Shown here in pieces: positions 1 through 13,562 of a DNA stretch of 15,599 nt. Below the pieces are notes generated by a model, which was not told where the DNA came from, did no database searches, and saw only the letters and a list, made by a program, of their open reading frames with translations. The translations under genes and the position numbers were made by a program. Each line of letters begins with the position of its first letter. Position 1 is the stretch's first letter. The stretch is from a virus, in IMG/VR virus record IMGVR_UViG_3300037175_000342, positions 1 through 15,599 of that record. One strand, written 5' to 3'.

Positions 1-69
1 AGCATGTTCTTCTCCTAGGAGTTGATTTTGGTCCGGCCAGGTTTTACTGCGTTATTGCATTATTACGTT

Positions 70-273
70 TTAAACGGTGTCGATGGTGTCGAGCTGCGCT
101 GCAACGGGTTCCTTTTCTGCCCATGCATTCAGCGCGTTGGCCAACTCTTGATGTTCTCCAGCGTCGCCAGGATTTCCAGCCTTCAAAACAAGGCCAATAC
201 GGTCTTCCGTATCCATGCAAAGGTAGCTGCCATCCCGCGACAAATGCACATACGCTGATCTGATGAACTTCAT
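70..273 (-). CDS. hypothetical small protein (67 aa)
   Basis: Track ORF is 70..333. I prefer the internal ATG at 273 (MKFIRSAYV...). It follows GAAGGCGGA (SD-like), and the 60 nt upstream are a heptad-repeat tract rather than protein-like sequence. Another AGGAGAAGAAC-ATG start at nt 5..3 runs off the window edge. Confidence 0.5.
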   Translation of the reverse strand: MKFIRSAYVHLSRDGSYLCMDTEDRIGLVLKAGNPGDAGEHQELANALNAWAEKEPVAAQLDTIDTV

Positions 274-286
274 TCCGTGTCCGCCT

Positions 287-321
287 TCACTGTTCACTGT
301 GAACTGTGAACTATAAACTGC
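287..321. repeat. phased heptad tract x5
   Basis: Plus strand reads tcactgt tcactgt gaactgt gaactat aaactgc. Sense RNA reads GCAGUUU AUAGUUC ACAGUUC ACAGUGA ACAGUGA, i.e. (C/U)AG-N4 x5. It lies in the spacer between the 245-aa and 67-aa genes. Confidence 0.85.
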
Positions 322-336
322 GGCGTAAAGCACCGC

Positions 337-1074
337 CTACCACCAGTTCCACCCAATGCCCCGTGCGCGCCGCGCGTTCGACCCGGCCCGCGCCGTCATG
401 CCCTGTTTTTGTCGCACAATCTTCGCCACAATATCATCGGCGGCCGCTTCGCAGTCGGCCACCATCGATTGATAACTCGGATTTCCCGCTTCCACCCCAA
501 TCAGCGGAATCGTGCCCGCCGTCACGCAAATCTCCATGTCGGGGTCCACCACCAGCACATCTTCATCCTTCACCAGCACCGGCGGATTAAATCGCCCATC
601 CACCAAAATATCGATTGGCGCGTTCATCGGCGTCACAAAGATCTGGTTGGCTCTCCAGGTCCAGTCCATACCGCCGCTGATAAACCCCGCTCCAGAGTAC
701 GCTCCAGGCACGGCAACGCCCGGCAGGATGGTTTTCTTCTGCCGCGCCTCCCGATAGAACCGCTCTTGGCTTCCCGCCGGCTTCCACCACACATAGAGCG
801 GCTCGTAGAGGCCATTCAGCGGCTTCCCTGCCTGCTGGTACACCGCCAGCGACGTCAACCCCTGGTTGGTGGGGTTCATATCCACATCGAACGCGTTGGG
901 AATCTCCACCATCTGTTCCAGGTTCGATCCTGTTGACCTCTTGATGTAAAGTGTTTGGCGGCGGTACGCGAAGTTGATCTTCGGCCCCAGGTAGCCTTCC
1001 TTCAGCCATCCGTTCGGATCATCGTCGCCGATGATCGATCGTACCGTCGCTTTCACATCAAAGTAGGTATTCAA
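337..1074 (-). CDS. hypothetical virion-module protein (245 aa)
   Basis: Track ORF. The start is TTG (1074..1072), 6 nt after GGAG (sense AAGCGGAGCGAAC-TTG). The sequence is non-repetitive and I recognise no family motif. A head-completion, neck or tail role is inferred from position only. Confidence 0.65.
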   Translation of the reverse strand: MNTYFDVKATVRSIIGDDDPNGWLKEGYLGPKINFAYRRQTLYIKRSTGSNLEQMVEIPNAFDVDMNPTNQGLTSLAVYQQAGKPLNGLYEPLYVWWKPAGSQERFYREARQKKTILPGVAVPGAYSGAGFISGGMDWTWRANQIFVTPMNAPIDILVDGRFNPPVLVKDEDVLVVDPDMEICVTAGTIPLIGVEAGNPSYQSMVADCEAAADDIVAKIVRQKQGMTARAGSNARRARGIGWNWW

Positions 1075-1116
1075 GTTCGCTCCGCTTGGTAGCCCAAGGC
1101 TTTAGCCCTGGGTCGG

Positions 1117-2352
1117 TTATTCTTCGCCCGGAAGAGCCGTCGTTTCGGCCACCGGAATCTCTTTGTTCGGGTCGATCGCTTCCGCGCCGCCGCGGGCACG
1201 CTTCTTGTACGGCCCACGGCCCGAGTGTTCCTGCACTGCCGGCGTAGGCGCCGGGCTTTCTGGCCACTGCACACTGTTCCCTGTTCCCTGTTCTTCAAAC
1301 CCTTGCATCCGCATCTTGCGCTCGTTCATGGCCACTTCGCGCTCTTCGCCGCGCAAACTCATCAGCCAAGCGTCCGCCACGGGGTACCCGGCCATGTACG
1401 TTGCGAACGTGTCGATCGGCGATCCGCAACTGCAGAATGGTGTGTCCGGCTCCGGCTCCAGTTTGCGGCAGCTCTGGCACTTGCGCAGTCGGCTGTCTGG
1501 CTTCGCCTCGTTCGACTCGCCCACCATGCTCAGCATCTCGTTCAGCCAGGTCTTTTCGCCAGCCTTCGGCTTGGCCGCGTAGCCCATGTTGATCGCCCAG
1601 CGGTACCAGATGCGGTCCGACTCGGAAATCTCGCGGATCGACTGATCTTCGCTCCACTTCTGCTGCGCGCGCCCAATCGTCGCATCGGCAAACCGCTTCT
1701 GGCCGATGAACATCCGGTCTAGGTACTCCTGTAGATTGTAATTCACCGTGCGAAAGGTCTTGTGCGGCGTCTTGCCGATCATCGTCAACTGCGCCACCGG
1801 CACCTGGACAATCTGCCGTGACACGTCTTCCTCGGCCAGCAACCGCTCAAGCGTGTGCACATCGCCCTTGAAGGCCAGCACACCGTAGAACTTTCGCGCG
1901 GCCTTCGGCGCGGGCGGCAGCAGCAGCCCGTCCGGCGCCATAAAGATCGGCGAAAAGTGCTCGAGAAACGTGTATGCAATCGAAATCGGCAACTGGTATT
2001 GCACCTCCTGCTGCGGCACCACCTCGCCCGGCGCGCCCAGGCCCTGAGCCCCGATCATCTTGCCGTACATCTTGGGCGAGCGGCAGGTCCACAGGTGGCC
2101 CACACGCTCCTTGCCCTCATACGGAAGCCGAATGCGGCACACGTCGGCGGGCAGGCGGGTATCGTAGGGCGATGGCACTTTATACTGGCGCAGAAGCCCC
2201 TGCAAGCCAATCTCCACTGGGTTAAAGTTCACAATACTGTAGGGCTCGCATTGGCCCGTCGCCATCAATTCTTCGTACTTCGCCTTCACCTGCTCGCTAA
2301 AAAGCTGCTGAGCCGCGCCGATCGTATCGATTGCCAGTCCTGCTGAGGTCAT
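1117..2352 (-). CDS. hypothetical virion-module protein (411 aa) with CxxC-x11-CxC knuckle
   Basis: Track ORF. ATG 2352 is preceded by AGGAGAACCGGC. A Cys knuckle (CQSC...CSC) lies at nt 1426..1479. The last ~60 codons follow an in-ORF heptad tract (1260..1294), so the true 3' frame and end are less certain. Confidence 0.7.
   Translation of the reverse strand: MTSAGLAIDTIGAAQQLFSEQVKAKYEELMATGQCEPYSIVNFNPVEIGLQGLLRQYKVPSPYDTRLPADVCRIRLPYEGKERVGHLWTCRSPKMYGKMIGAQGLGAPGEVVPQQEVQYQLPISIAYTFLEHFSPIFMAPDGLLLPPAPKAARKFYGVLAFKGDVHTLERLLAEEDVSRQIVQVPVAQLTMIGKTPHKTFRTVNYNLQEYLDRMFIGQKRFADATIGRAQQKWSEDQSIREISESDRIWYRWAINMGYAAKPKAGEKTWLNEMLSMVGESNEAKPDSRLRKCQSCRKLEPEPDTPFCSCGSPIDTFATYMAGYPVADAWLMSLRGEEREVAMNERKMRMQGFEEQGTGNSVQWPESPAPTPAVQEHSGRGPYKKRARGGAEAIDPNKEIPVAETTALPGEE
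1260..1294. repeat. phased heptad tract x5, inside the 411-aa ORF
   Basis: Plus strand reads ctggcca ctgcaca ctgttcc ctgttcc ctgttct. Sense reads CAG-GGAA-CAG-GGAA-CAG-UGUG-CAG-UGGC-CAG. It encodes EEQGTGNSVQWPE. Confidence 0.8.
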
Positions 2353-2364
2353 GCCGGTTCTCCT

Positions 2365-2441
2365 AAAACAGTTGTCAGGGGACAGTGATCAGTGGTCAGT
2401 GAAAAATACCCTATTCCCTGTTTCCTATTGCCAATTCCCTG
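2365..2441. repeat. phased heptad tract x11, bipartite
   Basis: Plus strand reads aaaacag ttgtcag gggacag tgatcag tggtcag tgaaaaa tacccta ttccctg tttccta ttgccaa ttccctg. All 77 nt are in one phase and fill the 95-nt spacer between the 225-aa and 411-aa genes. Confidence 0.85.
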
Positions 2442-2447
2442 CCAGCG

Positions 2448-3125
2448 TCATCCGGCCGACAAGTGACTATTTGAACCCATCCCCGCCATCAACCCATCGC
2501 GCACACTCTGCGCCGTGCGGCCAATGGTGGCCAGCGTCGGATCGCTCACCGCGCGGTGAATCTGGTTCACTTGCTCCAGAAATTCCTCGCGACGCCGCTC
2601 TTCCGCCACCCGATGCCGGTACAGCGCCAGCCGCAGCCGCGACACCTCGTCCATTTCCATCTCGGCGCGCGCGCGGATCCACTTCAAAATCTCTTCCTTC
2701 CAAAAGTCCGTAGGCGGTAACTCGGCGTAAAACTCATCGTTCGCCATCTGGTAGTCTCCGTGCCGCGGAAACTCGCCCATCATCTGTGTCACGCCGTCCT
2801 GGCTGGTCTCGTGTTCCCAGTCCGCCAGCGCGCCCCACGTCGACGCCGGGAACCACCGCTCCAGGCAGTAGCCCTTCCCCTCGTAGCGCGGTACCCACAT
2901 CTCGCCGGCACTGAATCCTTCTGGCTCGATTTCCATATCGGGGGTTACGTAATCGACGTTCACCTGCGGCATGTGCCGCATCTGGCCAAAGCGCTGATCA
3001 AATACATTCTGCGCTAGCACCACGCGCCACACCGGCCCGCCAAACGGGTTCAGGCCGCCAAAGCGAGTAATCTCTTTGGTAAGCGCCGGCCGTATGTCGA
3101 GCAGTGCCCGTTCACGCGGATGCAT
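2448..3125 (-). CDS. hypothetical protein (225 aa)
   Basis: Track ORF. ATG 3125 is preceded by GGAGAACTA and sits immediately after the post-capsid hairpin and U5 run. No recognisable family. Confidence 0.65.
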   Translation of the reverse strand: MHPRERALLDIRPALTKEITRFGGLNPFGGPVWRVVLAQNVFDQRFGQMRHMPQVNVDYVTPDMEIEPEGFSAGEMWVPRYEGKGYCLERWFPASTWGALADWEHETSQDGVTQMMGEFPRHGDYQMANDEFYAELPPTDFWKEEILKWIRARAEMEMDEVSRLRLALYRHRVAEERRREEFLEQVNQIHRAVSDPTLATIGRTAQSVRDGLMAGMGSNSHLSAG

Positions 3126-3136
3126 TAGTTCTCCAG

Positions 3137-3175
3137 AAAAACCGGCTGGGACGGCAGGTTCGCCGCCCCGCCCGG
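3137..3175 (-). terminator. intrinsic terminator after the capsid-like gene
   Basis: Sense sequence is CCGGGCGGGGCGGCG-AAC-CTGCCGTCCCAGCCGG-TTTTT. The pairing is 4 bp, a 2x2 mismatch, then 9 bp (two G:U), followed by U5. The next RBS comes directly after. Confidence 0.55.
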
Positions 3176-3180
3176 TTGTT

Positions 3181-3215
3181 AGCTAAAAGCTGAAAGCTGA
3201 AAGCTAATAGCTGTT
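3181..3215. repeat. phased heptad tract x5
   Basis: Plus strand reads agctaaa agctgaa agctgaa agctaat agctgtt. Sense reads CAG-CUAU-UAG-CUUU-CAG-CUUU-CAG-CUUU-UAG-CUAA. It starts 1 nt after the capsid-like gene's stop codon. Confidence 0.85.
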
Positions 3216-3216
3216 C

Positions 3217-4521
3217 TTAAACCGCGTCCGCAAAGGCAGGGTTGATGCCCAGCGTGGTGATGACGCCGTTCCACCAGGGCAGCTTGCCGTAGTAGTTACT
3301 GCTGTCCTGGTAGTACATGTCGAACTCGCTCAGCCAGCGGCCGTTCGGGTCCATCTTCGGCCACCAGAGACTCTGGCCCCCGCCAAAGGGCAAAAACTTC
3401 TGCGAACCCGGATACCGCACGGCCCGCAAACCGCTCTTGCGCAGCGAGTACAACTTGTCGATCGCGGCAGTCGATTCCGTGATCACCTTCCGGCCAGAAA
3501 TCACCCACTCGTCGGTGCCCCGCGGCCCAATGTCGTAGTTGGCATTCTTGCCGTTCTCCAGGAAGTACGTGCTCTTCGCAAAGCCCAGCGTCTCAGCCGA
3601 GGTCGCCTGCGCAAAGTGGGTGTACCAGAAGCAGTCGTCGCCGCCGTCCATCCAGCTTGCGGTACCCAGGGCCTGCTGCTGCCGCGCCTTGAAGATCGAT
3701 ACGGTACCCAGCGTCAGGGTGCCGTTGGCCGCATTCAGCGCCGGTGCCTGCACCCAACTCAGGCTGCGGTCCACGCCGTCGTAGTCGCCCACGTTCGACG
3801 GGTCCACAATGTACTCGAGGCCTTGCAGCCACAGCGGCGTGCCGCTGGTCACGCCCGTCGGGATAAAGTTGCATCCCGCGGCCAGGCCAACCGGCACGTT
3901 GTCGATGGTCACCGTATCCCCGGCGCCGATCGACGTTGAGAATTTGTCGGTGGTGGTTACCGTGCCAATCACGTTCAGGTTGGCGTCGGTCACCTGGTAT
4001 TTTTCGTAGGCGTCAATCAGGCGCGCGCCAAAGCTCACGTTCGCCATCGGCACAATGTTGCCGCCGGCATACGACGCGTCCACGGTGCCAAGCACGCCGT
4101 TGTTGAAGCCCTGCAGATAGGTGTCGCGGCTGTGGCCGTGCTTTGTTTTGGCGTCGTTCACCATGCGCGCCACCGGATCCACGGCGCTGATCTGTTTGCC
4201 GCCCTCGGCAATCCACTTCATCAACTGGGTCGCATTCCAGGCAGAAATCACCGGCACGGGCGAGATAATGAACTGCGAATAGCCGGGGCCAATGCCCTGG
4301 GGCAACGAGCCGCCGTCCGGCTGCCAGCCTCCGGAGTGGCCGCCAATCGAGAACTGAATCCCGTGACGGTATTCCTGGAGGGATACGTCGGAGCCTTTTT
4401 CCACTCCAAACATCTTTTCGAGCGCGCCGTCCATGTTCTGGCTCAGCTCGATATCGTCCGCTACAACCTGCAAGTCCAGCGGCAACTGCGCAACAGCAGT
4501 GCCAAAATCTTGAACGGCCAT
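3217..4521 (-). CDS. putative major capsid protein (434 aa)
   Basis: Track ORF. ATG 4521 is preceded by AAGGAGAATGCG. The call rests on size and position: after the scaffold-like gene, behind a 300-nt leader, and followed by a hairpin+U5 terminator. There is no motif-level proof. Fold recognition (HK97 fold) is needed. Confidence 0.5.
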   Translation of the reverse strand: MAVQDFGTAVAQLPLDLQVVADDIELSQNMDGALEKMFGVEKGSDVSLQEYRHGIQFSIGGHSGGWQPDGGSLPQGIGPGYSQFIISPVPVISAWNATQLMKWIAEGGKQISAVDPVARMVNDAKTKHGHSRDTYLQGFNNGVLGTVDASYAGGNIVPMANVSFGARLIDAYEKYQVTDANLNVIGTVTTTDKFSTSIGAGDTVTIDNVPVGLAAGCNFIPTGVTSGTPLWLQGLEYIVDPSNVGDYDGVDRSLSWVQAPALNAANGTLTLGTVSIFKARQQQALGTASWMDGGDDCFWYTHFAQATSAETLGFAKSTYFLENGKNANYDIGPRGTDEWVISGRKVITESTAAIDKLYSLRKSGLRAVRYPGSQKFLPFGGGQSLWWPKMDPNGRWLSEFDMYYQDSSNYYGKLPWWNGVITTLGINPAFADAV

Positions 4522-4548
4522 CGCATTCTCCTTGGCGGCCGTTGCATA

Positions 4549-4611
4549 CAGTGGTCAGTGGTTAGTGGTCAGTCAAAAACGCCGCCTGCTCACTGTTCAC
4601 TGCACACTGGC
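4549..4611. repeat. phased heptad tract x9, bipartite
   Basis: Plus strand reads cagtggt cagtggt tagtggt cagtcaa aaacgcc gcctgct cactgtt cactgca cactggc. Sense is CAG-N4 x4, then GCGUUUUU, then CUG/CUA-N4 x4. It ends 27 nt upstream of the capsid-like ATG. Confidence 0.85.
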
Positions 4612-4821
4612 CTTCGGCCAGGTCTATGGTTTTGTACTCGCCAAAGGCCGATTCGCCTTTAGCGGACGACACGCTGGTCCAACCATTGCCCTGCCAAGTT
4701 GATGCGATGTTCCACGTGAAACCTTTTCAAATCCTTCGTGCGCCTGAGCCCCCCGGTAGGGCGATACGCGGTGGCGCGGATTCGGTTTGGTTTCAATCCT
4801 TCCGTATTCTACCCCCGATTG

Positions 4822-6531
4822 CTACTTCTTGCGCAACCGGTGAAATTGCGTCAGTAGCATTGCCTGCCGGTCATGCGGGTTCGCGCCCGCCCACTCCGGC
4901 AACTTGCTGGCCGCTTCCTCCGCAGCCTTCAATACCTGTTCGCGGCTGGCATTCTGCGGCAGGCTCGAGCCGCCTGTCGAGGGCTCCGGCTGCGCCGCCT
5001 GGTTCCGCGCCTTCAGCCGCTCGCCCATCTTCTCCTGGTCCACCTTCACCAGGTTCTGGATGCGCTCCACCTCCGCATCGACCAGCCGCGGGATGATGTC
5101 CGCAGCCTTGCGCGCGTAGTACTCCTGCCGAATCTTGCGGGTTTGCTCGTTCGCCGGCAGCAACTGGTGCTGCGTAATTTCGTAGAGCGTCTTTGATCCC
5201 GGCTTCATCAGTTCGTTTTCAAACTGAATAAAGATCTCGGCGGCAATGCGCGGCGTGTTCCACTCCTGGCCATTCTTGTTGCGATACTTTTCCTGTTTGT
5301 ACATCTCCGGAATGTAGGCCCCGGACTCTTCCACCTTTGCCAGCGCCTCGGCAATCATCTTGCCGGCTGTGGTGCCCATGTCGCCGCGCACGGCAGTGTT
5401 GAACTGCTGAGCCTGCGCCGCTCGCTCTTCCTTGCCGGCGCCCTTCTTCTTATCTTCCAACTCCTGCCGCTGTCGCGCCAGTTCCGCCTGCTGCTGCTCA
5501 AACCACGCTTTCTGCTCTTCCGTCGCCCCCTCGGGGAGCGCCGGCGGACCCACTTCAAAGAACGACCCATCGCGGATCTGGTCAATCACGTCCAGCGCCA
5601 ACTGGGCGTATTTCAAGTTCTCCAGCCGCTGTGCGTCCAGCGCCCGTGCCGCTTCGCTCGGGTAGTGCCCCGCCAGCTTCGTCTCCAGTTGCTGAATTTC
5701 GTTGGCGTTCTTCGTCGACCACTTTCCAATCTCGCGGTTTACCAGGCCGCCCACCACCGCCTGATGATCTGGGTCGAACACGGGGTTGCCCTGCGTGTCC
5801 ACCACCGGCTTGCCTTCGGCGTCCACCTGCTGAAACTGCTGGTCAAACAGGTTCAGAAACTCCGGCACGCTCTCGGGGTTGTCGATCGTCCGCAGGCTGG
5901 CCGTCTTCAGCGCCACTTGGTTAGAGGCCTGCTCCTGCAAAAACTGCGCATCGCCCACCGTCGGGGCAATGGCTAGAATCGGCTCCGCCTCGGCCAGTTT
6001 CCGCGCCAAGGCAAATACGGGCCCCTTCACCTCCGGATGCGCTTCCATAAACGCGCCAAACTCCGGCGACTTTTCCATCAGCTCGGCCAGTTGCCGCGGC
6101 GTGGCCGGTGCGGCCTCCGCCGCCGGAGCAGCGGGCTCCGTTCCGTCCGCCGGCTTCGCGGGCTCCGTCGCGCCCGGCTCTCCGGGGGCCTTGCCTGGTT
6201 CCGTCGCCTGCTTTGTAGCCGCGCCGGTATCGGCAGCAACCTGTTCCCTGTTTTCTGTTCCCTCGTCCTGCTTCAGCGATTCGCCGGGATGCTCGCGCCG
6301 CCAGTTGTGCACGGCGGTCAAAAACTCGCCTTGCTTGTCCGGACCGTAGTCCGAGGCCTTCGGTGGTCCCTGCGGCGCCGGTGCGCCAGCGCTTGGCTGG
6401 CTGGTGCCGGTTATGGCCGCTGGGGGAGCCGCATTCCCCTTCGTTGCCGTGCTGGGGGCCGAACCAGAAGCCGGCGCAGCGGCAGGAGCCGCCGGAGCCG
6501 GAGCCGAAACAGGTGCTGCTGGAGTTGCCAT
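4822..6531 (-). CDS. putative scaffolding-like protein (569 aa)
   Basis: Track ORF. The N-terminal ~150 aa are Ala/Pro/Gly/Thr low complexity. The rest is Glu/Gln/Lys/Arg-rich and helical (e.g. EQKAWFEQQQAELARQRQELEDKKKGAGKEERAAQAQQ). It lies between the portal-like and capsid-like genes. The function is positional inference. Confidence 0.45.
   Translation of the reverse strand: MATPAAPVSAPAPAAPAAAPASGSAPSTATKGNAAPPAAITGTSQPSAGAPAPQGPPKASDYGPDKQGEFLTAVHNWRREHPGESLKQDEGTENREQVAADTGAATKQATEPGKAPGEPGATEPAKPADGTEPAAPAAEAAPATPRQLAELMEKSPEFGAFMEAHPEVKGPVFALARKLAEAEPILAIAPTVGDAQFLQEQASNQVALKTASLRTIDNPESVPEFLNLFDQQFQQVDAEGKPVVDTQGNPVFDPDHQAVVGGLVNREIGKWSTKNANEIQQLETKLAGHYPSEAARALDAQRLENLKYAQLALDVIDQIRDGSFFEVGPPALPEGATEEQKAWFEQQQAELARQRQELEDKKKGAGKEERAAQAQQFNTAVRGDMGTTAGKMIAEALAKVEESGAYIPEMYKQEKYRNKNGQEWNTPRIAAEIFIQFENELMKPGSKTLYEITQHQLLPANEQTRKIRQEYYARKAADIIPRLVDAEVERIQNLVKVDQEKMGERLKARNQAAQPEPSTGGSSLPQNASREQVLKAAEEAASKLPEWAGANPHDRQAMLLTQFHRLRKK
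6241..6268. repeat. short heptad tract x3-4, inside the scaffold-like ORF
   Basis: Plus strand reads ctgttcc ctgtttt ctgttcc ctcgtcc. Sense reads GAG-GGAA-CAG-AAAA-CAG-GGAA-CAG. It encodes DEGTENREQ. Confidence 0.55.
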
Positions 6532-6657
6532 GATCTCACATTCCTCTCAAAACGAAACTGCCGCGCCACTTTCGTTATTCGGGAATTCACCTGCCAATTG
6601 TTTCGTGATCCCCAAAGTGTGCCGTCCTACGAATTTTCATACCTCGCGCTAACGGCG

Positions 6658-7443
6658 TCAAGCCTTAATCGTAACGCGGCCAGCACTCGCCCGAGTTGCC
6701 GTCAACTGCGCCACACCTGATATGTTGTTGCTGACACCAGTCAATTCCGCCATCTTCTGTTCTCCGGCAACCGCATCCAGATCGGCCGCAGACGGTTTGC
6801 CGTTATCGGCATATGATTTGTTATCGGGCTGCGGAGGCGCTTCAGTTGGCTTCTGATTGAGAATTGCCTGCTGGCTCTCAGCTAGTACGGTTAAGTCGGC
6901 AACTCGCGCCGTCAAACCTCTCAGCAACTGCGCGGCACTAATCAACGTGCCCGTCATCGAAATGTCCAATATGTCGTCAATCTCAGCAACCGTCTTGCCG
7001 AGTTCGATCAAATGCGGCAACATTTCTTCCACAATCACGTCATTCTGGTTTTTCGGCGCTGCAACAGAAGTCTCCACCGGCCGCCATCCAATCTTCCGCG
7101 GGTTAGCCTTCACAAACTCCAAATTGGCGGCCACAATCTTCTCCCGCTCGCCCGGCGTCTTCCCGGCCTCTTTCCAAGCCGGATCATGCGCGGCCGCGGC
7201 CTCAGCAACCGCCAGCAGGTGCTCGTCGTCCACCGCCGAGCCCACCAGCGGCGCGGCCTTCACCGTCACCGGCACAGCCAGTTCGTTCAGATAGATCAGG
7301 TTCAGAAACAGGCTGCCCAACTTCGCTCCGCTGTTGTATCCCTCTGTGGGTGCTCCCAGCGCCATCGCGCTGTACTCCTTGTCCGCCGCCGCATACACCA
7401 CAGGTTCACCCAACTTGATGTTCTTCATCTCCGTTGTCGTCAT
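6658..7443 (-). CDS. hypothetical protein (261 aa)
   Basis: Track ORF. ATG 7443 is preceded by AAAGGATTGAACC. It lies between the portal-like and scaffold-like genes. No family recognised. Confidence 0.65.
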   Translation of the reverse strand: MTTTEMKNIKLGEPVVYAAADKEYSAMALGAPTEGYNSGAKLGSLFLNLIYLNELAVPVTVKAAPLVGSAVDDEHLLAVAEAAAAHDPAWKEAGKTPGEREKIVAANLEFVKANPRKIGWRPVETSVAAPKNQNDVIVEEMLPHLIELGKTVAEIDDILDISMTGTLISAAQLLRGLTARVADLTVLAESQQAILNQKPTEAPPQPDNKSYADNGKPSAADLDAVAGEQKMAELTGVSNNISGVAQLTATRASAGRVTIKA

Positions 7444-7467
7444 GGTTCAATCCTTTCGTTTTGCTTT

Positions 7468-7502
7468 TTCTGATCACTAACCACTGTGCACTGATCACTG
7501 CT
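7468..7502. repeat. phased heptad tract x5
   Basis: Plus strand reads ttctgat cactaac cactgtg cactgat cactgct. Sense reads CAG-UGAU-CAG-UGCA-CAG-UGGU-UAG-UGAU-CAG. It overlaps the portal-like gene's stop codon and precedes the 261-aa gene's RBS. Confidence 0.85.
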
Positions 7503-10053
7503 TTAAAAGCTGCGTTTCCACCTTGCCCGCAGTGTCGATTACCTTGCCGGCCGCCGCTACCTGGCCCGTAATCGTCCCTGAAGTCATCGCCGGATCAATC
7601 GCCGCCAGCCGCTCGCACAGCAGCACCATGTCCGCCGCCGCGCTACGCAGCATTCCCAAAGTCTGCTGCTGTACGGGCGCGTTCGGATCCGGCGGCTGGC
7701 TGGCAGCCTTCACCTTCAAGTCGAGCCCCGCCTTGCGCACGCCCTGCTGCGCCTGCATATCCTGACACATGCCAAAGTACTGCTCAATCTGGCTGTAGCC
7801 CACCGGATTCTTGATGCGCAGATCGGCGTTCTCAATGTAGAACTCGGTGATGGTCGGAATCACCACATCGAAGTTCTCCATGATTGAGGGTTCCACCGGC
7901 AGCTTCGACCCGATCGAGCCGTCGTCGTTCATCACCGGCATCGCCGTCTGCTCCAGCAGCGTGTTCATGTCCTCGAGCGTCTTGGCCCGCTGCGCGCTCA
8001 CTGGGCTCACAATGCCGGGGTAGAGTGTTGCTCCAATCACTTCCTGATTTGCCGGAACGTCGAAGATCGCCTGCGCCACCGGATTGCCCGCACTTAGCTC
8101 CTTCACCAGCATGTTGAAGCTCTCGCGGATCTGCTGCGGCGTCTGCGGCAGGCTCTGGTCTTCGTCCGGATACACCTTCACGCGGCCCTGCATCTTTTGC
8201 AGGTTCACATAGTTGGTGCGGAACTGCGCACCCTTATCCTGGATAACTTCGCTGATCTCCTGTGCCGCGCCGCACTTCAGCAGCACGGTCAGGCACTCAA
8301 TCGCGTTCTGGGCTGCTGCCGCGTGCTCTTCCTTTACATTCTCCCAGAAGGGCTCCAGGCCTGTCTGCCCGGATTGCTGCTGAATCTCCTGGCCGCCCAG
8401 CGTCTCCACGCCCGGTGTCGTGCCGTTGCCCGCCAGTTGCGCCGGCAGTCCGTTCAGCATCTGCGCAAAGTTCAGCAACATGCTCGGATACATCCCAAGC
8501 GCCGGATTGACCGGAATGTCGTAGTGCAAAAACGCTTCCTGCAAAGTCCGCTGCGATGCGCCAAACTTTGTGGGCACCGGTATCACCGTCGCCGGGGCCA
8601 GCGTGTTGCCCTTCCACTGGTCGCTGTCGATCATCGCCGCGTCAATCAGGTTCAGGCCGCAGCTCGCGCGCATCATCCAGTCGTCGTAGAGATACATCGC
8701 GTTGTTAAACCGCTCGTTAAAGCTGGTCACATTCTCGGCGATGCTCTGGGAGTAGATGCCGAAGTTCTCAAACAGCCGCCCCAGCGTCCACTCCTTCGTG
8801 AGGACGGCTTTCTTCACGCCCACCACTTCGCCGCCGATCATGGTCAACTTCAACCCGTCCGGCGCCGCCGCCATCATGCGCGCGGCATACTCGCGGTCGC
8901 CGGTGCGCATGTAGCTGGTCGGCTGCATCCACGCCTGGCCATACGTTGGCTTCTGCTGGTCCGTGTCGCTCGTGTATCCGGTGCCCATGGAGTAGCTTTC
9001 GCTTCTCCGTAGCTTGTCATAGCTCGCGTTCTCCGCGGTCGTCGACTCGGCGCCTTCCTTGATCTGGCCCCAGGCGTCCGGAAACATCATGCGCGCTTCG
9101 CCGATGTCGATTTCATAGTCAAAGGCCAGAATCGGCGTGCCGTCCAGGTCCTTTGCCATCGGGTCGCAATCCACCTCGAGCGGCGAGTGGATCGTTTGCT
9201 TCACCATGGCGCGCGGAATCTTCTCCATCTGCACCACGCCGAGCCGCGCCTTCGTCTCGCTCGGGTAGAAGCTGTCCTCGCGCATCTGCCGCTTGCAACC
9301 GGGGCACTCGGCGCCACTCTCGTCCATTTGCAGATCGTCGACCGGGGTTTCCCGGCCGCACCCCAAGCACCGCATCCGGTCGGGCAGTTTGATCTGCATC
9401 TCGCCCATCACCGGCTGAGTGTCGTATCCGCTCCAGCGTCCGTCCAGCACGCCGCGGGTGAATTTAAAGTAGGTCCCGTAGAGATACAGCATTTCAAACT
9501 CGCCGCGCACCATCTGGCGAATCTTGTTGCGCCGCTCAATGATACCCACCGCGTCCTGCGCCGCCGCCGCCGTCGTAATGTCGGCCAGGATGCGCGCGTC
9601 TTGCGGCTTCACCACGGTGTTGGGCACCTCGCGGCTCATGTTACCCACAAAGGTCTGCCCCAGTAATAGCGTCAACGGATGGATAAAGCGCTGCAGGTGC
9701 ACGCTCTCGCCGTCGCGCACTTTATCCGAGCCCTGATACCATGCCAGCGCGTCCACCCAGTTGCCGGTGTCCTGATTCCAGTCAATCACCTGAATGTTGC
9801 GGTAGAACATAACGTTTTTCAGCCATATCTGCATCCGCCGCAACCGGTCCGTGCCCCACTGGTTGCGATACATGCTGATGATCTTGACGCATTGCTGAAT
9901 GTCTTCTTTCGTCAAGTCGAGCTGCATCCACTGGTCTTGCCCGGTGCCCTGCGCGGGGTTCTCCGGGCTGACCGCGGCAACCTCGCTCGCCTGTGATCGC
10001 CCAGGGTCGGCGTTCGGCACCTTCATCGGCAACAGACTCGCTCCAGCGGCCAT
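7495..10053 (-). CDS. putative portal protein (852 aa) with inserted CxxC-x17-CxxC zinc ribbon
   Basis: This is the largest ORF. ATG 10053 is preceded by GGAGTGAGCTA. It lies directly upstream of the scaffold- and capsid-like genes. I found no Walker A motif, so it is not a terminase. The zinc ribbon CLGC...CPGC is at nt 9295..9369. The portal call is positional. Confidence 0.5.
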   Translation of the reverse strand: MAAGASLLPMKVPNADPGRSQASEVAAVSPENPAQGTGQDQWMQLDLTKEDIQQCVKIISMYRNQWGTDRLRRMQIWLKNVMFYRNIQVIDWNQDTGNWVDALAWYQGSDKVRDGESVHLQRFIHPLTLLLGQTFVGNMSREVPNTVVKPQDARILADITTAAAAQDAVGIIERRNKIRQMVRGEFEMLYLYGTYFKFTRGVLDGRWSGYDTQPVMGEMQIKLPDRMRCLGCGRETPVDDLQMDESGAECPGCKRQMREDSFYPSETKARLGVVQMEKIPRAMVKQTIHSPLEVDCDPMAKDLDGTPILAFDYEIDIGEARMMFPDAWGQIKEGAESTTAENASYDKLRRSESYSMGTGYTSDTDQQKPTYGQAWMQPTSYMRTGDREYAARMMAAAPDGLKLTMIGGEVVGVKKAVLTKEWTLGRLFENFGIYSQSIAENVTSFNERFNNAMYLYDDWMMRASCGLNLIDAAMIDSDQWKGNTLAPATVIPVPTKFGASQRTLQEAFLHYDIPVNPALGMYPSMLLNFAQMLNGLPAQLAGNGTTPGVETLGGQEIQQQSGQTGLEPFWENVKEEHAAAAQNAIECLTVLLKCGAAQEISEVIQDKGAQFRTNYVNLQKMQGRVKVYPDEDQSLPQTPQQIRESFNMLVKELSAGNPVAQAIFDVPANQEVIGATLYPGIVSPVSAQRAKTLEDMNTLLEQTAMPVMNDDGSIGSKLPVEPSIMENFDVVIPTITEFYIENADLRIKNPVGYSQIEQYFGMCQDMQAQQGVRKAGLDLKVKAASQPPDPNAPVQQQTLGMLRSAAADMVLLCERLAAIDPAMTSGTITGQVAAAGKVIDTAGKVETQLLKQ

Positions 10054-10069
10054 TAGCTCACTCCGTTCG

Positions 10070-10097
10070 CAGTGGTCAGTTCACAGTGCACAGTAAT
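10070..10097. repeat. phased heptad tract x4
   Basis: Plus strand reads cagtggt cagttca cagtgca cagtaat. Sense is CUG-N4 x4. It lies in the spacer between the 133-aa gene's stop and the portal-like RBS. Confidence 0.8.
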
Positions 10098-10498
10098 TAG
10101 TTTGCCTTCCCCGAGAGCCCGTAAGTGCCATCCTTGATGGCTTCTCGGACTGCCCGGTGCACATCGTCAAAACTCGCGCGCCGCTCGGGCATCGGCGGCA
10201 CCGCAGTGGGTTTTTCCGATTCACGATCCCTGACTTCCGCTGTGTCTCGCTTCTGGTAGATTGCTGGTTGTCCGCTCAACTGCACAATGCGATCGGTCAG
10301 CAATTCCCGCTTCGCTTCACTTGCCATCAGGTCCGCGCGTAGTTGCTTGATCTCGTCCTTCAACTCCACAACCTGCGCCGCGGCCAGATCCCGGTAGCGT
10401 TCGCCGTCCCGAGTATTCGCCTCAATAATCAGGCTGAGCGTCTTTTCGCGCGTCAGCGCAGCATCCAGTTCCGTTCGGCCTACCCAAGGACTTCTCAT
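10097..10498 (-). CDS. hypothetical coiled-coil protein (133 aa)
   Basis: Track ORF. ATG 10498 overlaps the stop of a 22-codon ORF (TCATGA). It has a heptad-like helical stretch (AAAQVVELKDEIKQLRADLMASEAKRELLTDRIVQL). Confidence 0.6.
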   Translation of the reverse strand: MRSPWVGRTELDAALTREKTLSLIIEANTRDGERYRDLAAAQVVELKDEIKQLRADLMASEAKRELLTDRIVQLSGQPAIYQKRDTAEVRDRESEKPTAVPPMPERRASFDDVHRAVREAIKDGTYGLSGKAN

Positions 10499-10563
10499 GA
10501 AAACAACCCCATCAAAAACGCTTTAAACCATTCCTTTTGCTCATCTTTCGCTGGTTTCTTCAT
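10495..10563 (-). CDS. candidate 22-aa micro-ORF (MKKPAKDEQKEWFKAFLMGLFS)
   Basis: Not in the track because it is too short. The sense strand reads TGA-GGAGAAC-ATG AAG AAA ... TCA TGA. It has a strong SD at correct spacing. It starts right after the upstream gene's stop and ends in an ATGA overlap with the next gene. Confidence 0.3.
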   Translation of the reverse strand: MKKPAKDEQKEWFKAFLMGLFS

Positions 10564-10570
10564 GTTCTCC

Positions 10571-10954
10571 TCAGATCCATTCAGTTACGACAATCGCTGT
10601 TGCAGTCGCTGTCTGGCTGGTTACCTGTGCGATCGGTGTGCCCAATCCCGCCGGACCACCAGGCCCAATCGGCTGGCCGCCGGAGCCGCCGTTCCCGATC
10701 GGAACCGTGTTGGGCGGATGATCGCCCGGATAGCCGGAAAACTCGTATTGTCCGGAGGTGTCCACCAGTTGAGCCGGCCCCACATCGTATTGTCCGAATG
10801 GCTTGGCCTTCAGTTCGTTCACAATCAACCCCTGGGGATTCCCACCCGGCGATTGAAGTTCCTGGATCAGCATCTTGCTTGACAACTCTGTGCACCGGAC
10901 AATGAATGGAGCGCTGCCAGCCGCCGGCACGTTATATTGGGATACTTTCTGCAT
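10571..10954 (-). CDS. hypothetical Gly/Pro-rich protein (127 aa)
   Basis: Track ORF 10571..10978 starts at a TTG. I prefer ATG 10954 (MQKVSQYN...), 5 nt after GAGGAG. The C-terminal half is Gly/Pro-rich (GNGGSGGQPIGPGGPAGLG). Confidence 0.6.
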   Translation of the reverse strand: MQKVSQYNVPAAGSAPFIVRCTELSSKMLIQELQSPGGNPQGLIVNELKAKPFGQYDVGPAQLVDTSGQYEFSGYPGDHPPNTVPIGNGGSGGQPIGPGGPAGLGTPIAQVTSQTATATAIVVTEWI

Positions 10955-11080
10955 CGCAACTCCTCTTGACCTGAACAAGTTTGCCGGGCTGTGAGGGAGG
11001 TCGGCCCACCAGCCCGGCTCCTGCGCCGACCCACGTGGTGGGTGCTCCGCCAGCCTTCCCCGAGCCGGCTCTGCGCAAGC

Positions 11081-11560
11081 CTAACTATTTGTGCCCAACA
11101 ACTCATGGTACTTCGCTTCGAGTGTAGCCATTGAGTGCCCCCCCTGTCCATATGCGTTTCCAGGGAAGCTCGCCCAAATGTTTGCGCAGGCCTCAATTGC
11201 CCCGCCAATATCGCCCGCCTCAATCTTTTCCAACGCGCCGCGTTCCTTCATTTGCTGCAACGCCACCGCATCCTGACTGTTCGGGCTAAAGTCCGGTAGA
11301 TGCAACTGCTTTTTGTAGGCGCGCCAGTATCGCGCAAGAATCTGATAGCGGCCGGCGGCCGACGACACCAGTCGCGGCGATTCACGCACCACCACCACAC
11401 CGCCCAACGCAAACGGATGGTCGGCGTAGTTTGTGAACACGGACGGACCCTCCACGCCGGTCACAATCACGTCGTAGCCTTGATTCTCCGTGAGCGGGCT
11501 CGTGCTGGTTCCCTCACTCCATCCAATCAAGTCGAAAAACGCTTTTTGCTTGGCGTCCAT
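11081..11560 (-). CDS. endolysin, phage lambda R-like lytic transglycosylase (GH104)
   Basis: The 159 aa match lambda R (recalled from memory) along the whole length. Matches include KAFFDLIGWSEGT (lambda KAFLDMLAWSEGT, catalytic Glu), GYDVIV, AGRYQILARYWRAYKKQLHLPDFSPNSQDAVALQQMKERGAL and IWASFPG. The RBS GAAGGAATTGA precedes the ATG. Confidence 0.9.
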   Translation of the reverse strand: MDAKQKAFFDLIGWSEGTSTSPLTENQGYDVIVTGVEGPSVFTNYADHPFALGGVVVVRESPRLVSSAAGRYQILARYWRAYKKQLHLPDFSPNSQDAVALQQMKERGALEKIEAGDIGGAIEACANIWASFPGNAYGQGGHSMATLEAKYHELLGTNS

Positions 11561-11573
11561 TCAATTCCTTCGC

Positions 11574-11918
11574 TCAAAAACCAACAGCCGTCGTAAGCTG
11601 CGGCTGTTGGCCGTTACGGCGCCTTTCAAGCTCTTCCGGAGAAAGGAATCCGATATGTTTGCCGCGTGTCTCAATCACCCAAGCGATCTCGGTCATTTCA
11701 TACAAGGTGAGCTTTCCCTGCTCCACAAATCGGTTACATTCGGCGATCTGTGTTCTGATCACCGGGGCTCCCTGTAAAGCGTCGCAGCGTTTTTCTTCTC
11801 TGCCTGTCAATGCACTGCGCCGTCGCAGGCAGAAACGGCAACTTACGCAGGCATCAGCCGATCCCTGTACGGTCGCACCTTGAATCTTTCCAACCAGCGG
11901 ATTTGCATTGATATTCAA
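11574..11918 (-). CDS. hypothetical Cys-rich protein (114 aa)
   Basis: Track ORF is 11574..11978. I prefer TTG 11918 (MNINANPLVGK...), 6 nt after GGGAG, which removes the 49-nt overlap with the upstream gene. It contains CVSCRFC plus two more Cys. Its last codons form a terminator hairpin. Confidence 0.5.
   Translation of the reverse strand: MNINANPLVGKIQGATVQGSADACVSCRFCLRRRSALTGREEKRCDALQGAPVIRTQIAECNRFVEQGKLTLYEMTEIAWVIETRGKHIGFLSPEELERRRNGQQPQLTTAVGF
11576..11610 (-). terminator. intrinsic terminator overlapping the last codons of the Cys-rich gene
   Basis: Sense sequence is CCAACAGCCG-CAGCTTACGA-CGGCTGTTGG-TTTTT. This is a perfect 10-bp stem, a 10-nt loop and U5, ending in the TGA stop 14 nt before the endolysin ATG. 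Confidence 0.5.
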
Positions 11919-11929
11919 CTTCAACTCCC

Positions 11930-12205
11930 TCAGTAGTGCCGCGCCGCGATACGGTTGGACACGAGCGCATCCAGCCAATGATTCCAGAAATGGACGTGGT
12001 AGAACTGCTGGACGGGCGGACCGCGCTGGTTCTGCGGGGCGGCCGCGATTAGCTCAAACTCGTTCGGCCAGTAGCAGGAGTTGATTCCGGCGATTGCTTG
12101 GGCGCCGGGGTCCGTCTTTGTGGGGTCCGGCATGGACTCGTAGCGCGGAGGCGTCCTGTCCTCATTGGGCAGGAGGAACGGGTAGCAAATGTCGAATGAA
12201 CTCAC
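11930..12205 (-). CDS. hypothetical 91-aa protein, weak GH108-like (lysozyme N-terminal domain) resemblance
   Basis: The GTG start forms a GTGA overlap with the upstream stop. FDICYPFLLPNED...DPTKTDPGAQAIAGIN...FYHVHFWNHWLDAL loosely follows the GH108 pattern (F..a..fvL.hEGG...dp.DpGG.T.yGI ... Y....W..l). The EGG and GG signatures are degenerate here. Confidence 0.4.
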   Translation of the reverse strand: MSSFDICYPFLLPNEDRTPPRYESMPDPTKTDPGAQAIAGINSCYWPNEFELIAAAPQNQRGPPVQQFYHVHFWNHWLDALVSNRIAARHY

Positions 12206-12471
12206 TGCGGGATTCCCTCAATTTTCTTGGCGAACGCATTCATCACGTCCTGCTCACAGTGGAATCCGGCCAGTTTGAGCGCCCAGCCGAATACGGGCAC
12301 CGCGATCGTGACGGTCAGCACAGGAACGGCTAACAGCCATGAGAAGTTGATGCCATAGGAGGAATCGCTACCGTCCTCGCTGTCGATGGTCAGGCCGGCG
12401 TCGGAGTGCATGACCTGTTTGATGGCCTGCCAGCGCTCAGGAGTGATGCCCTGGAATGTCTGAGTAATCAT
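12202..12471 (-). CDS. hypothetical membrane-anchored protein (89 aa)
   Basis: Track ORF is 12202..12507. I prefer ATG 12471 (MITQTFQG...), preceded by GGAGGAAGGATTCT and in an ATGA overlap with the DUF3307 stop. It has one C-terminal hydrophobic helix (FSWLLAVPVLTVTIAVPVFGWAL). Confidence 0.6.
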   Translation of the reverse strand: MITQTFQGITPERWQAIKQVMHSDAGLTIDSEDGSDSSYGINFSWLLAVPVLTVTIAVPVFGWALKLAGFHCEQDVMNAFAKKIEGIPQ

Positions 12472-12800
12472 AGAATCCTTCCTCCGTAAACTACCAGAAT
12501 CGCCCATAAAATCTTACAGCCGTAATGAATCGCCTGATCTTGATTGAAGTCGATTAGCTTCTCGCACTTGGCCCAATCTGTCAGCCAGTGAATCACCAGT
12601 TCTACAATGCCGAGTATCAATGACCCCGTGATGAGATAAACCGCCGCAGCCTGAATCAACGCATGGGCTGTGAGGAGTTGCCACCATGCCATTCCCGGAA
12701 TCGGCGTGTGTCGATTCTTACCCTTGGCTAAAAAATCGCCCTGCAACGGGTAGTCGCAGAGCGCGTGTGCAGCGAACATTAAGAAGATCAAACGAAACAT
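12468..12800 (-). CDS. DUF3307-family membrane protein (110 aa)
   Basis: The N-terminal AAHALCDYPLQ matches the DUF3307 signature H..(L/x)DYxLQ as I recall it. It has about 3 hydrophobic helices. ATG 12800 is preceded by GAGGTGAGTT. Spot GC is ~48%, lower than the structural genes. Confidence 0.7.
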   Translation of the reverse strand: MFRLIFLMFAAHALCDYPLQGDFLAKGKNRHTPIPGMAWWQLLTAHALIQAAAVYLITGSLILGIVELVIHWLTDWAKCEKLIDFNQDQAIHYGCKILWAILVVYGGRIL

Positions 12801-12812
12801 AACTCACCTCGC

Positions 12813-12851
12813 AAAAGGCGGCGGCCCGGCTGTTTGAGTGACCGAGCCGCC
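12813..12851 (-). terminator. terminator- or attenuator-like hairpin upstream of the DUF3307 gene
   Basis: Sense sequence is GGCGGCTCGG-TCACTCAAACAG-CCGGGCCGCC-GCC-TTTT. This is a 10-bp stem (one G:U), a 3-nt spacer and a short U4 run, followed by GCGAGGTGAGTT-ATG. The short U run makes it weak. Confidence 0.3.
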
Positions 12852-12884
12852 TGTTAGTCCCGGTGCGTCCGGGGTGAAGGTTTT

Positions 12885-12990
12885 GCGCGTCCAGCCGGAA
12901 TGGTTTCTCACCACCGACCTTCGGGTTTCCAGCCCGATGCTCTAGCAGGTTTCTATCGCCTGCCGCTTCTGAGCTACAGCTGAAACGCGC
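12885..12990 (-). ncRNA. candidate structured RNA, tRNA-like four-way cloverleaf (not a canonical tRNA)
   Basis: The closing helix is GCGCG-UUU-CAGC / GCUG-GA-CGCGC. Arm 2 is GCUC...GAGC capped by GCAGG-CGAUAGAAA-CCUGC. Arm 3 is UCGGG-CUGGAAA-CCCGA, a 5-bp stem with a 7-nt loop (U at position 2, purine after GGA). Arm 4 is CGGUGGU-GAGAA-ACCA(UU)CCG. UAGCUCAG and AGGUC are tRNA-like. It lacks a TPsiC loop, GG in the D loop and a 7-bp acceptor with CCA. Confidence 0.3.
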
Positions 12991-12997
12991 AAACTCG

Positions 12998-13548: not shown

Positions 13549-13562
13549 GGGTTTCTCCTATT

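Follow-up and report, generated by a model that had tools for sequence, protein, structure and literature searches.

Heptanucleotide arrays in the virion-module spacers of a phage probably belong to a class of bacterial intergenic repeats

We analyzed the periodic 7-nt repeat arrays that lie between virion genes in a window comprising the 15,599 nt (~59% GC) of the IMG/VR record IMGVR_UViG_3300037175_000342. An original prediction had read these tracts as possible binding arrays for an oligomeric RNA- or single-stranded-DNA-binding protein coordinating late-gene expression or, alternatively, as a slippage-generated repeat class specific to the lineage. We found that the tracts are probably phage-borne bacterial intergenic heptanucleotide repeats, apparently written in the dialect of the host lineage, and not a conserved regulatory code encoded by the phage. 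They are repeats at the level of DNA, in which a CAG(T) core is kept while a 3-nt filler varies. Comparison of related phages indicates that the arrays are rapidly gained, lost, and replaced, and their unit types match those beside ordinary genes in metagenome-assembled genomes (MAGs) of Acidobacteriaceae.

All eight tracts named in the original prediction were found at their predicted positions, and Tandem Repeats Finder (TRF) reported period-7 or period-14 arrays at each of them (286-320, 1274-1293, 2369-2401, 2409-2440, 3181-3213, 4549-4573, 4586-4609, 6240-6263, 7470-7500, and 10065-10094). One of the two tracts inside an open reading frame (ORF), previously placed at 6241-6268, is better given as 6234-6263. 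Counting phased arrays of [CT]AG or CT[GA] with at least four units over the whole window gave nine at period 7 and none at periods 5, 6, 8, or 9. With C[AT]G triplets only, five arrays were observed, against a mean of 0.05 and a maximum of 1 in 300 second-order Markov simulations of the window. The original observation is confirmed.

The minus strand carries all genes of 1-10500. Seven of the nine period-7 arrays are intergenic, in spacers that amount to ~811 nt, or 8% of 1-10100, and about one third of this spacer sequence consists of heptads. The two remaining tracts lie inside ORFs (residues 353-365 of a 411-aa protein and residues 88-97 of a 569-aa protein). No array was found in 10100-15599, in agreement with the earlier statement that gene boundaries in 10498-15599 are free of heptads, while an additional (CAGTGGT)4 lies just past the left window end in near-identical contigs (L007:12827-12872). 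In the window spacers the tracts adjoin stop codons or ribosome-binding sites (RBSs), as had been described; canonical AGGAG-type RBSs are kept downstream of the arrays, which do not substitute for them. TRF also detected 14-nt higher-order units within the arrays. The features are as follows.

274-336, 2353-2447, 3126-3216, 4522-4821, 7444-7494, and 10054-10096: array-bearing spacers.
1075-1116 and 6532-6657: other spacers, completing the eight of 1-10100.
287-321: heptad array (TRF and phased count) in the spacer between a 245-aa gene (stop 337) and a 67-aa gene (start 273, backed by homology and Joint Genome Institute (JGI) gene calls); mRNA sense GCAGTTT ATAGTTC ACAGTTC ACAGTGA ACAGTGA, self-complementary through its GTTCAC/GTGAAC units.
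1260-1294: in-ORF heptads, mRNA sense AGAACAG GGAACAG GGAACAG TGTGCAG TGGCCAG, at residues 353-365 of the 411-aa protein; the orthologue alignment places them in an indel-rich linker, where a ~6-8-residue insertion is common only to the closest relative, L001.
2365-2401: CAG-type array in + strand sense (CAGTTGT CAGGGGA CAGTGAT CAGTGGT CAGTG), adjoining the RBS and start (2352) of the 411-aa gene; on the mRNA a CUG-type array just 5' of the RBS.
2409-2441: CTG/CTA-type array in + strand sense (CCCTATT CCCTGTT TCCTATT GCCAATT CCCTG); on the mRNA a GGGAAT-type array after the stop (2448) of a 225-aa gene.
3181-3215: AGCTGAA/AGCTAAA array immediately following the stop (3217) of the capsid gene, with a GC-rich stem-loop and U run (~3136-3176) 3' of it on the mRNA; the AGCTGAA unit type also occurs in an Acidobacteriaceae MAG locus (L043:5316-5356).
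4549-4573: CAGTGGT array (CAGTGGT CAGTGGT TAGTGGT CAGT) beside the capsid-gene RBS and start (4521), the left arm of a CAG/CTG pair.
4586-4611: CTG-type array (CTGCTCA CTGTTCA CTGCACA CTGG), the right arm of the pair, forming an imperfect hairpin with 4549-4573.
About 6234-6268: in-ORF heptads, mRNA sense GGAACAG AAAACAG GGAACAG, in a low-complexity N-terminal region (~residues 88-97) of the 569-aa protein, to which relatives can be aligned only from residue 128-166 on.
7468-7502: CTG-type array in + strand sense, overlapping the stop (7495) of an 852-aa gene; mRNA sense AGCAGTG ATCAGTG CACAGTG GTTAGTG ATCAGAA, then an A-rich run, then the RBS of a 261-aa gene.
10065-10097: CAG-type array in + strand sense, filling the 43-nt spacer from a 133-aa gene (stop 10097) to the 852-aa gene (start 10053); mRNA sense ATTACTG TGCACTG TGAACTG ACCACTG, then the RBS.

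Two of the tracts had been described as single runs in unbroken phase. Each of these, 2365-2441 and 4549-4611, consists of two arrays of opposite polarity, CAG-type and then CTG-type on the + strand. The phase is kept throughout 2365-2441 but slips by 2 nt at the junction in 4549-4611 (CAG at 4570, CTG at 4586).

To place these arrays in a wider context, we scanned GTDB genomes and IMG/VR for four exact consecutive CAGTG-N2 units, which returned at least 120 stretches from each. We then analyzed 240 seeded loci (~8-kb windows in the case of genomes), calling genes with a simple heuristic based on ORF length and GC at third codon positions. Each locus was ascertained by one CAGTG-type array, so array densities in the loci are biased, and non-seed arrays were used where possible. 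Some viral loci are mutually related, and array pairs were de-duplicated by sequence. Phased arrays were found 225 times at period 7 and 7-22 times at other periods in the genome loci (867 kb), and 542 times at period 7 and 2-41 times at other periods in the viral loci (1043 kb). TRF likewise detected 1103 period-7 arrays over the seeded loci, compared with at most 220 at any other period.

The arrays follow a strict polarity with respect to the adjacent gene. We denote as F an array that reads (CAG-N4)n on the + strand and as R one that reads (N4-CTG)n. Within 40 nt of a stop codon, and in the sense of the gene, CAG-type arrays outnumbered CTG-type arrays by 56 to 6 among non-seed arrays (58 to 16 and 43 to 12 among seed-type arrays), and within 40 nt of a start codon CTG-type arrays outnumbered CAG-type arrays by 33 to 5 (57 to 13 and 20 to 11 among seed-type arrays). 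Where a spacer holds two arrays, we found 88 distinct F-then-R pairs with a gap of at most 60 nt. No R-then-F pair was closer than 171 nt, and at 171 nt a small gene is bracketed. An array that stands alone is closer to the gene on its left if it is F and closer to the gene on its right if it is R. Convergent and divergent neighbors conform to the rule, as do genes pointing the same way, on whichever strand. The polarity is dyad-symmetric in the DNA: a strand reads CAG-N4 going away from the adjacent gene, whatever the strand of that gene. On a polycistronic mRNA, stop codons are thus followed by CAG-type arrays and RBSs preceded by CUG-type ones, and two arrays in one spacer automatically form an imperfect inverted repeat. 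In the window, six of the six arrays with a clear side obey the polarity, and two that fill short spacers are ambiguous.

The earlier description of a kept triplet with varying filler agrees with mismatch rates in the seeded loci. In non-seed arrays detected by TRF without reference to the motif, the mismatch per position was 0.046 for C, 0.037 for A, 0.019 for G, and 0.044 for the fourth position, and 0.155, 0.105, and 0.187 for positions 5-7. The CAGN core is kept 3-8 times better than positions 5-7. In the window, A5/T5 runs stand at the inner array ends (4570-4583, 2395-2408, and 7458-7475). Such a distal A-run holds in the clade of the window phage, but most of the pooled profile comes from one contig group; an A-run as the general distal end of the arrays is suggestive but unproven.

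We compared the orthologous spacers of related phages. IMG/VR holds six syntenic relatives of the window phage, and the eight relatives compared (L001-L006, L254, and L255) have the same gene order and 64-91% capsid identity. Heptads are absent from the orthologous spacers of five of the eight (L002, L004, L005, L006, and L254), whose junctions are instead overlapping TGATG, short spacers with only an RBS, GC-rich stem-loops, or inserted small genes. The other three (L001, L003, and L255) carry arrays with other units (CTGAAAA, GGGGATC, CAGGGAT, CAGCGGT, and CAGGAAC), partly at other junctions. Across these related phages the arrays are not conserved. At the other extreme, six contigs from six samples that are at least 99.9% identical to the window show no indel in any tract. 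Since arrays are present, absent, or replaced among relatives, yet free of indels in near-identical contigs, their turnover keeps pace with the divergence of the proteins. The head module does not require them, and they are not hypervariable. The sole indels of the near-identical contigs are two microhomology-type deletions outside the heptads, at 60-100 of the window (L009 and L011); they hit the spacer and the 3' end of the 67-aa gene, changing its C-terminus to give 60, 67, or 81 aa.

The site upstream of the capsid gene illustrates this turnover. In the window and L001, an array pair with unrelated fillers is inserted between a clade-conserved leader and the RBS, and no target-site duplication is visible. 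In L002 and L004, a small hairpin is followed directly by the RBS, with no array. The leader itself (window 4612-4821, minus strand; L001:9712-9940; L003:6230-6420; L005:9789-9900) contains CCGCGCCACCGTGTAnCGCCCTACCGGGGGGCTCAGGCGCA and TTGGCAGGGCAATGG. It has no Rfam match, and a 36-aa ORF called by JGI over part of it is probably spurious.

Several heptad spacers of the window hold inserted genes in relatives (L004:5515-6396, L003:5890-6488, and L255:1961-2356). In L004 a GIY-YIG-like ORF lies between the homologues of the 852-aa and 261-aa genes, and a GroES/Cpn10-like gene precedes the capsid gene in L003 and follows it in L255. The array-free relative L254 (ENA ERZ27254832 k141_176154; 70% capsid identity) lies within a 523-kb contig and is probably a prophage, which would make the clade at least partly temperate.

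Similar arrays are found in cellular genomes. The GTDB matches listed include Acidobacteriota (Terracidiphilus, Acidobacteriaceae, and Pyrinomonadaceae), Planctomycetota, Chloroflexota, Cyanobacteriota, Bacteroidota, Verrucomicrobiota, and others. Some IMG/VR contigs hold 7-8 matches to the four-unit CAGTG-N2 pattern in 9-10 kb. In the related loci, 77-82% of CAGTG-type arrays fall outside called genes. Loci of Acidobacteriaceae MAGs with 56-66% GC hold all three unit types of the window (CAGTGGT/CAGTGAA/CAGTGAT, GGGAACA, and AGCTGGA/AGCTAAA), and in Acidobacteriaceae and Terracidiphilus the placement is as in the phage, with arrays following stop codons and preceding AGGA-type RBSs. The flanking MAG genes include lysC, dapB, truB, a PhoU-domain gene, and genes for peptidase M16, HlyD, an MFS sugar transporter, and a GDSL lipase, so that within the seeded 8-kb windows the arrays are dispersed beside functionally unrelated cellular genes. 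The original prediction had named the occurrence of the same heptads throughout host intergenic DNA, irrespective of gene context and at similar density, as a result that would speak against a regulatory code of the phage. Such occurrence was seen qualitatively, but not at equal density. Based on the unit matches, the host is probably a member of the Acidobacteriaceae.

Among these loci we also noted that in a Terracidiphilus MAG (L080:1277-1839) a gene for a '23S rRNA-intervening sequence protein' is inserted between lysC and dapB and bracketed by an array pair. Viral contigs, too, commonly contain small genes with a CTG-array on the left and a CAG-array on the right. In one group of IMG/VR contigs (L140, L145, L152, L155, and L157), with units CAGTAAT/CAGTGAT, an asymmetric center, CAGTAAAGGCAAAAACTG, recurs between the two arms of array pairs.

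Several observations weigh against reading the arrays as a host dialect that the phage simply carries. Pure slippage accounts for neither the better-kept core nor the strict polarity. The assignment of the host is itself an inference from the matches of array units. No array occurs in 50 kb sampled without bias from pACIX901, a replicon of the cultured Acidobacteriaceae member Granulicella tundricola; this rules out that all Acidobacteriaceae have arrays and indicates that the repeats are patchy within the family. Two cultured phages of cyanobacteria rich in heptanucleotide repeats, Nostoc phage N-1 and Anabaena phage A-4L, also have no arrays, so not all phages of repeat-rich hosts carry them. 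These two phages encode their own DNA polymerase, and, as a tentative observation, their host-type plasmid has arrays. The density in the window (nine in 15.6 kb) exceeds that of the seeded host loci, and seeded viral loci exceed genome loci ~2-fold per kb, an excess that a purely passive dialect does not predict.

The tracts can be compared with several described repeat families. The short tandemly repeated repetitive (STRR) sequences of heterocystous cyanobacteria have the classical units CCCCAGT, TTGGTCA, and CAACAGT, of which CCCCAGT and CAACAGT contain CAGT. Like the window arrays, they are tandem 7-nt intergenic units, often capable of forming a hairpin between genes of one operon. The comparison with STRR drawn in the original prediction was apt, as both belong to the same intergenic heptanucleotide class. 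Hairpins between genes have been reported for STRR, whose function is not known (PMC2670836). The window differs in its units (CAGTGGT, CAGTGAA, GGGAAT-type, and AGCTGAA), its ~59% GC, its location in a phage, and its lineage, probably Acidobacteriota; the array-free phages N-1 and A-4L have STRR-rich hosts. A strictly cyanobacterial STRR was rejected, as the units differ and the nearest cellular matches are from Acidobacteriaceae.

In 2007 Mrazek described 'long simple sequence repeats', among which heptanucleotides were the most over-represented in many prokaryotes according to later papers (PMC4679880, PMC4692102); polymerase slippage was suggested as their origin, as related in PMC4679880. 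The GGGAATC and GGGGA(C/T)T repeats of Xanthomonas and Nostoc, studied by Rehm et al. (2015; PMC4692102), are ~90% intergenic and lie near an ORF on their 5' side, the orientation of the ORF being immaterial. Paired inverted arrays occur, the neighboring genes share no functional class, and length and sequence vary among close relatives. The polarity of these repeats is the polarity of the window-type arrays, and the window array at 2409-2441 and the (GGGGATC)n array of L001 have the same unit type. The Xanthomonas and Nostoc repeats were studied as formers of G-quadruplexes, with a preferred copy number of four, and phages were not considered; unlike GGGAATC repeats, most units here (CAGTGGT, CAGTGAA, and AGCTGAA) are incapable of forming this structure. 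MacGregor (2015; PMC4679880) described TAACTGA repeats in marine Beggiatoaceae, Cyanobacteria, and Bacteroidetes, in which 147 of 170 sets point to a start codon, while reverse-oriented sets follow stop codons in Flexibacter and Cyanothece. Their distribution is patchy across phyla, with 7-nt indels between Cyanothece strains, and binding by S1, Csp, or CsrA was proposed. TAACTGA resembles the window arrays in being a heptamer with an ACTG core and in the rule that the CTG type stands before the start; its reverse-oriented sets after stop codons likewise agree with the polarity described here. It differs in being a single unit that replaces the RBS, whereas the genomes studied here have several units each, retain AGGAG RBSs, and carry arrays after stop codons as well. 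The literature searched yielded no description of arrays like these from phages or Acidobacteriota, which is not proof of absence.

Other candidates were considered and rejected. The HutP site consists of two sets of three UAG-N4 in one leader, bound by a HutP hexamer encoded in the operon, and the TRAP site of 9-11 (G/U)AG triplets, 2-3 nt apart, bound by the TRAP (MtrB) protein. Both resemble the arrays in that NAG triplets recur at short intervals along an RNA leader, and the HutP period is also 7 nt. However, these sites are single, conserved, and of one sense in the leader of one operon, whereas the arrays are many, of both senses, and not conserved. A HutP-type site was rejected because the triplets are mostly CAG/CUG and not UAG, at many sites and in both senses, and a TRAP site because the spacing is 4 nt and no arrays occur at periods 5 or 6. 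Scanning 20 window ORFs against Pfam gave no hit to HutP, MtrB, or other RNA-binding families. REP, BIME, and REPIN elements are copies of one 20-40 nt imperfect palindrome mobilized by RAYT transposase, mostly at gene 3' ends in proteobacteria. They share with the arrays an intergenic location, inverted hairpin-forming pairs, and dispersal beside unrelated genes, but the arms here differ between spacers and are not mirror copies, and no transposase or RAYT was seen among the window ORFs scanned against Pfam. Simple sequence repeats acting as phase-variation contingency loci are hypervariable in copy number within populations and turn a surface or virulence gene on and off; such behavior was not supported here, as no indel occurs in six assemblies from six samples, the units are imperfect, and the neighbors are head and housekeeping genes.

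We examined whether the arrays act through RNA structure. The mRNA of spacer 274-336 folds better than shuffled controls (z = -3.1), as does that of 4522-4625 (-38.1 kcal/mol, z = -2.8). Spacer 3126-3216 also does so (z = -3.8), owing mainly to its separate GC stem-loop with U run. Spacers 10054-10096 (z = +0.3), 7444-7494 (+0.7), and 2353-2447 (+0.4) show no structure beyond shuffles. A hairpin as the general function was rejected, since only three of the six array-bearing spacers beat shuffles, one of them because of a separate element. Inverted duplication as the origin of the pairs was rejected as well, because the two arms do not mirror each other in their fillers (0.123 identical at mirror positions versus 0.158 in unit-order shuffles; 88 pairs). 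Selection on a hairpin in the sense RNA finds no support in the 49 co-directional pairs, where the sense strand folds at -41.1 and the antisense strand at -43.0 kcal/mol, with 114 versus 174 G.U pairs. There is no signature of selection on mRNA folding. The hairpin potential arises because of the polarity and is not evidently its cause.

Several explanations for the arrays have to be weighed together. It seems very doubtful that they are bound on the mRNA by an oligomeric or cooperative RNA-binding protein, whether HutP/TRAP-like or a train of cold-shock or S1 domains with the OB-fold, that tunes translation, antitermination, or stability of late transcripts. The better-kept CAGN core would fit such a protein, as would the position of the arrays beside stop codons and RBSs, their clustering in the most highly expressed module, the capsid-upstream CAG/CTG pair that is kept in the window and L001 despite different fillers, and the binding proteins proposed for TAACTGA (PMC4679880). 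However, orthologous spacers are array-free in five of the eight relatives, and the polarity is set by the side of the gene and not by its strand, so the same DNA rule yields CAG or CUG transcripts. Half of the six spacers are unstructured and share no RNA motif beyond the triplet, the sense strand has no folding advantage in the 49 hairpins, and neither an RNA-binding family among the 20 ORFs nor an Rfam match was found. Because the arrays are not conserved, have symmetric polarity, and flank housekeeping genes of the probable host, the RNA-regulator idea fails as a phage-specific late-gene code. Two points keep a sequence-specific reading alive to some extent, namely the better-kept CAG(T) core and the capsid-upstream pair, and the host might possess a factor that recognizes CAGT every 7 nt. 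That the arrays are neutral junk is unlikely, though the least doubtful of the alternatives. They would then be microsatellite-like slippage products without constraint or function, found in spacers only because genes do not tolerate them. This would explain the rapid turnover among relatives, the 14-nt higher-order duplications, the restriction of in-ORF copies to indel-rich linkers, and the 7-nt indels between Cyanothece strains, and it agrees with the polymerase-footprint hypothesis of Mrazek as related in PMC4679880. It does not explain why conservation is specific to core positions, why pairs obey the polarity by 88 to 0, why the same CAGT core occurs across phyla of different GC content, or why copy number is invariant across six near-identical assemblies. 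The strict polarity and conserved core are hard to reconcile with neutral slippage and point to some factor.

Such a factor could belong to a polar system that makes or uses the arrays at the DNA level, although we regard this as quite improbable. It could be a DNA-binding protein that reads heptads, in the manner of the omega ribbon-helix-helix repressor, which recognizes 7-bp heptads of pSM19035, a templated addition of repeats to 3' ends at breaks in spacers, from which the CAG-then-CTG order would follow automatically, or a boundary of exchangeable cassettes. The dyad-symmetric polarity, independent of transcription, and the kept 4-nt core would suit it, as would the small genes bracketed by arrays in viral contigs, the insertion of morons and homing endonucleases at array-bearing spacers in relatives, the recurring center CAGTAAAGGCAAAAACTG in one viral contig group, and the apparent enrichment of viral over cellular loci. 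Tentatively, the lack of arrays in N-1 and A-4L, with DNA polymerases of their own, bears on it too. No candidate protein or enzyme was found, however; the arms are not mirror copies, the capsid-upstream insertion lacks a visible target-site duplication, and a single mobile element is hard to square with units that vary from spacer to spacer within one genome. Reading the tracts as intergenic heptanucleotide repeats carried by the phage is the explanation we favor. The arrays would expand by a slippage-type process in DNA, a likely origin in view of the 14-nt higher-order units and the published 7-nt indels. The host lineage would supply the process or factor responsible, so that the phage would carry the repeat dialect of its host, and the arrays would be tolerated, and possibly mildly useful, as spacer or stem-loop elements between cistrons. 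The alternative named in the original prediction, a slippage-generated class specific to the lineage, comes close with respect to slippage but not to lineage, as the class spans many phyla and viral contigs.

The heptanucleotide class, its polarity, and its want of an assigned function are already in the literature. What is new here is that such repeats also colonize phage genomes, with similar arrays in many IMG/VR contigs, that the unit types of a phage are those of its probable host lineage, and that CAGT-core units in at least six phyla and in viruses share the polarity described for GGGAATC in Xanthomonas and Nostoc, with no exception in 88 pairs. The arrays could serve as a signal of the host lineage for uncultured phages. 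As a long shot, CAG(T)-core arrays might be the footprint of one polar, sequence-specific DNA-level system common to several phyla and phages, either a heptad-reading protein or a templated repeat-adding or repair activity at gene boundaries. If so, phages in such hosts would acquire or exploit the arrays at a density even above that of the host, and the 35-year-old puzzle of STRR would become a tractable question of phage-host biology.

The label of virion module given to this region is borne out by the predicted fold of its 434-aa protein.

3217-4521, minus strand: major capsid protein gene, HK97-fold, from an AlphaFold2 model and Foldseek.

The model has a predicted local distance difference test score (pLDDT) of 75.6 and matches the PDB structures of phage capsids, those of cyanophage Mic1 (6j3q), A-1(L) (7f38), and SU10 (7z48), with E-values down to 2e-9, which makes the label sound. 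Sequence searches gave no match for the nine head-module ORFs (70-10498) in Pfam or PHROGs, for the capsid and 852-aa proteins in PDB, or for the capsid protein in INPHARED phages (tblastn). No Rfam family was found in the window at gathering thresholds, and a scan for sigma-70 promoters and terminators was not above shuffles.

Outside the arrays, the 542-aa ORF (13847-15475, minus strand) has a putative intein splicing domain at residues 24-345 (35.4 bits, just below the Pfam cut-off of 35.8), and its ends match phrog_15127 ('head protein') and phrog_19005 (no function given). A 282-aa ORF (14501-15349, plus strand) lies wholly within the intein part, antisense to it, and has three helix-turn-helix motifs and a DUF559/Vsr-like endonuclease domain (25 bits, cut-off 20.6). 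Its appearance is that of a homing-endonuclease gene on the strand opposite an intein. The motif GGCAGGGCAA recurs just upstream of several clade genes (in the window at, for example, 4686-4695, 2434-2443, and 5786-5795, and in spacers of L001-L005). With at most one mismatch it has 14 matches in the window (5.7 expected), 12 of them on the sense strand, and the motif could be a promoter or operator of the phage. Finally, reading by eye, we noted an uncalled 21-codon ORF (MKKPAKDEQKEWFKAFLMGLFS) at 10498-10563 on the minus strand, which has GAGGAG as its RBS and overlaps the 133-aa gene start in an ATGA.

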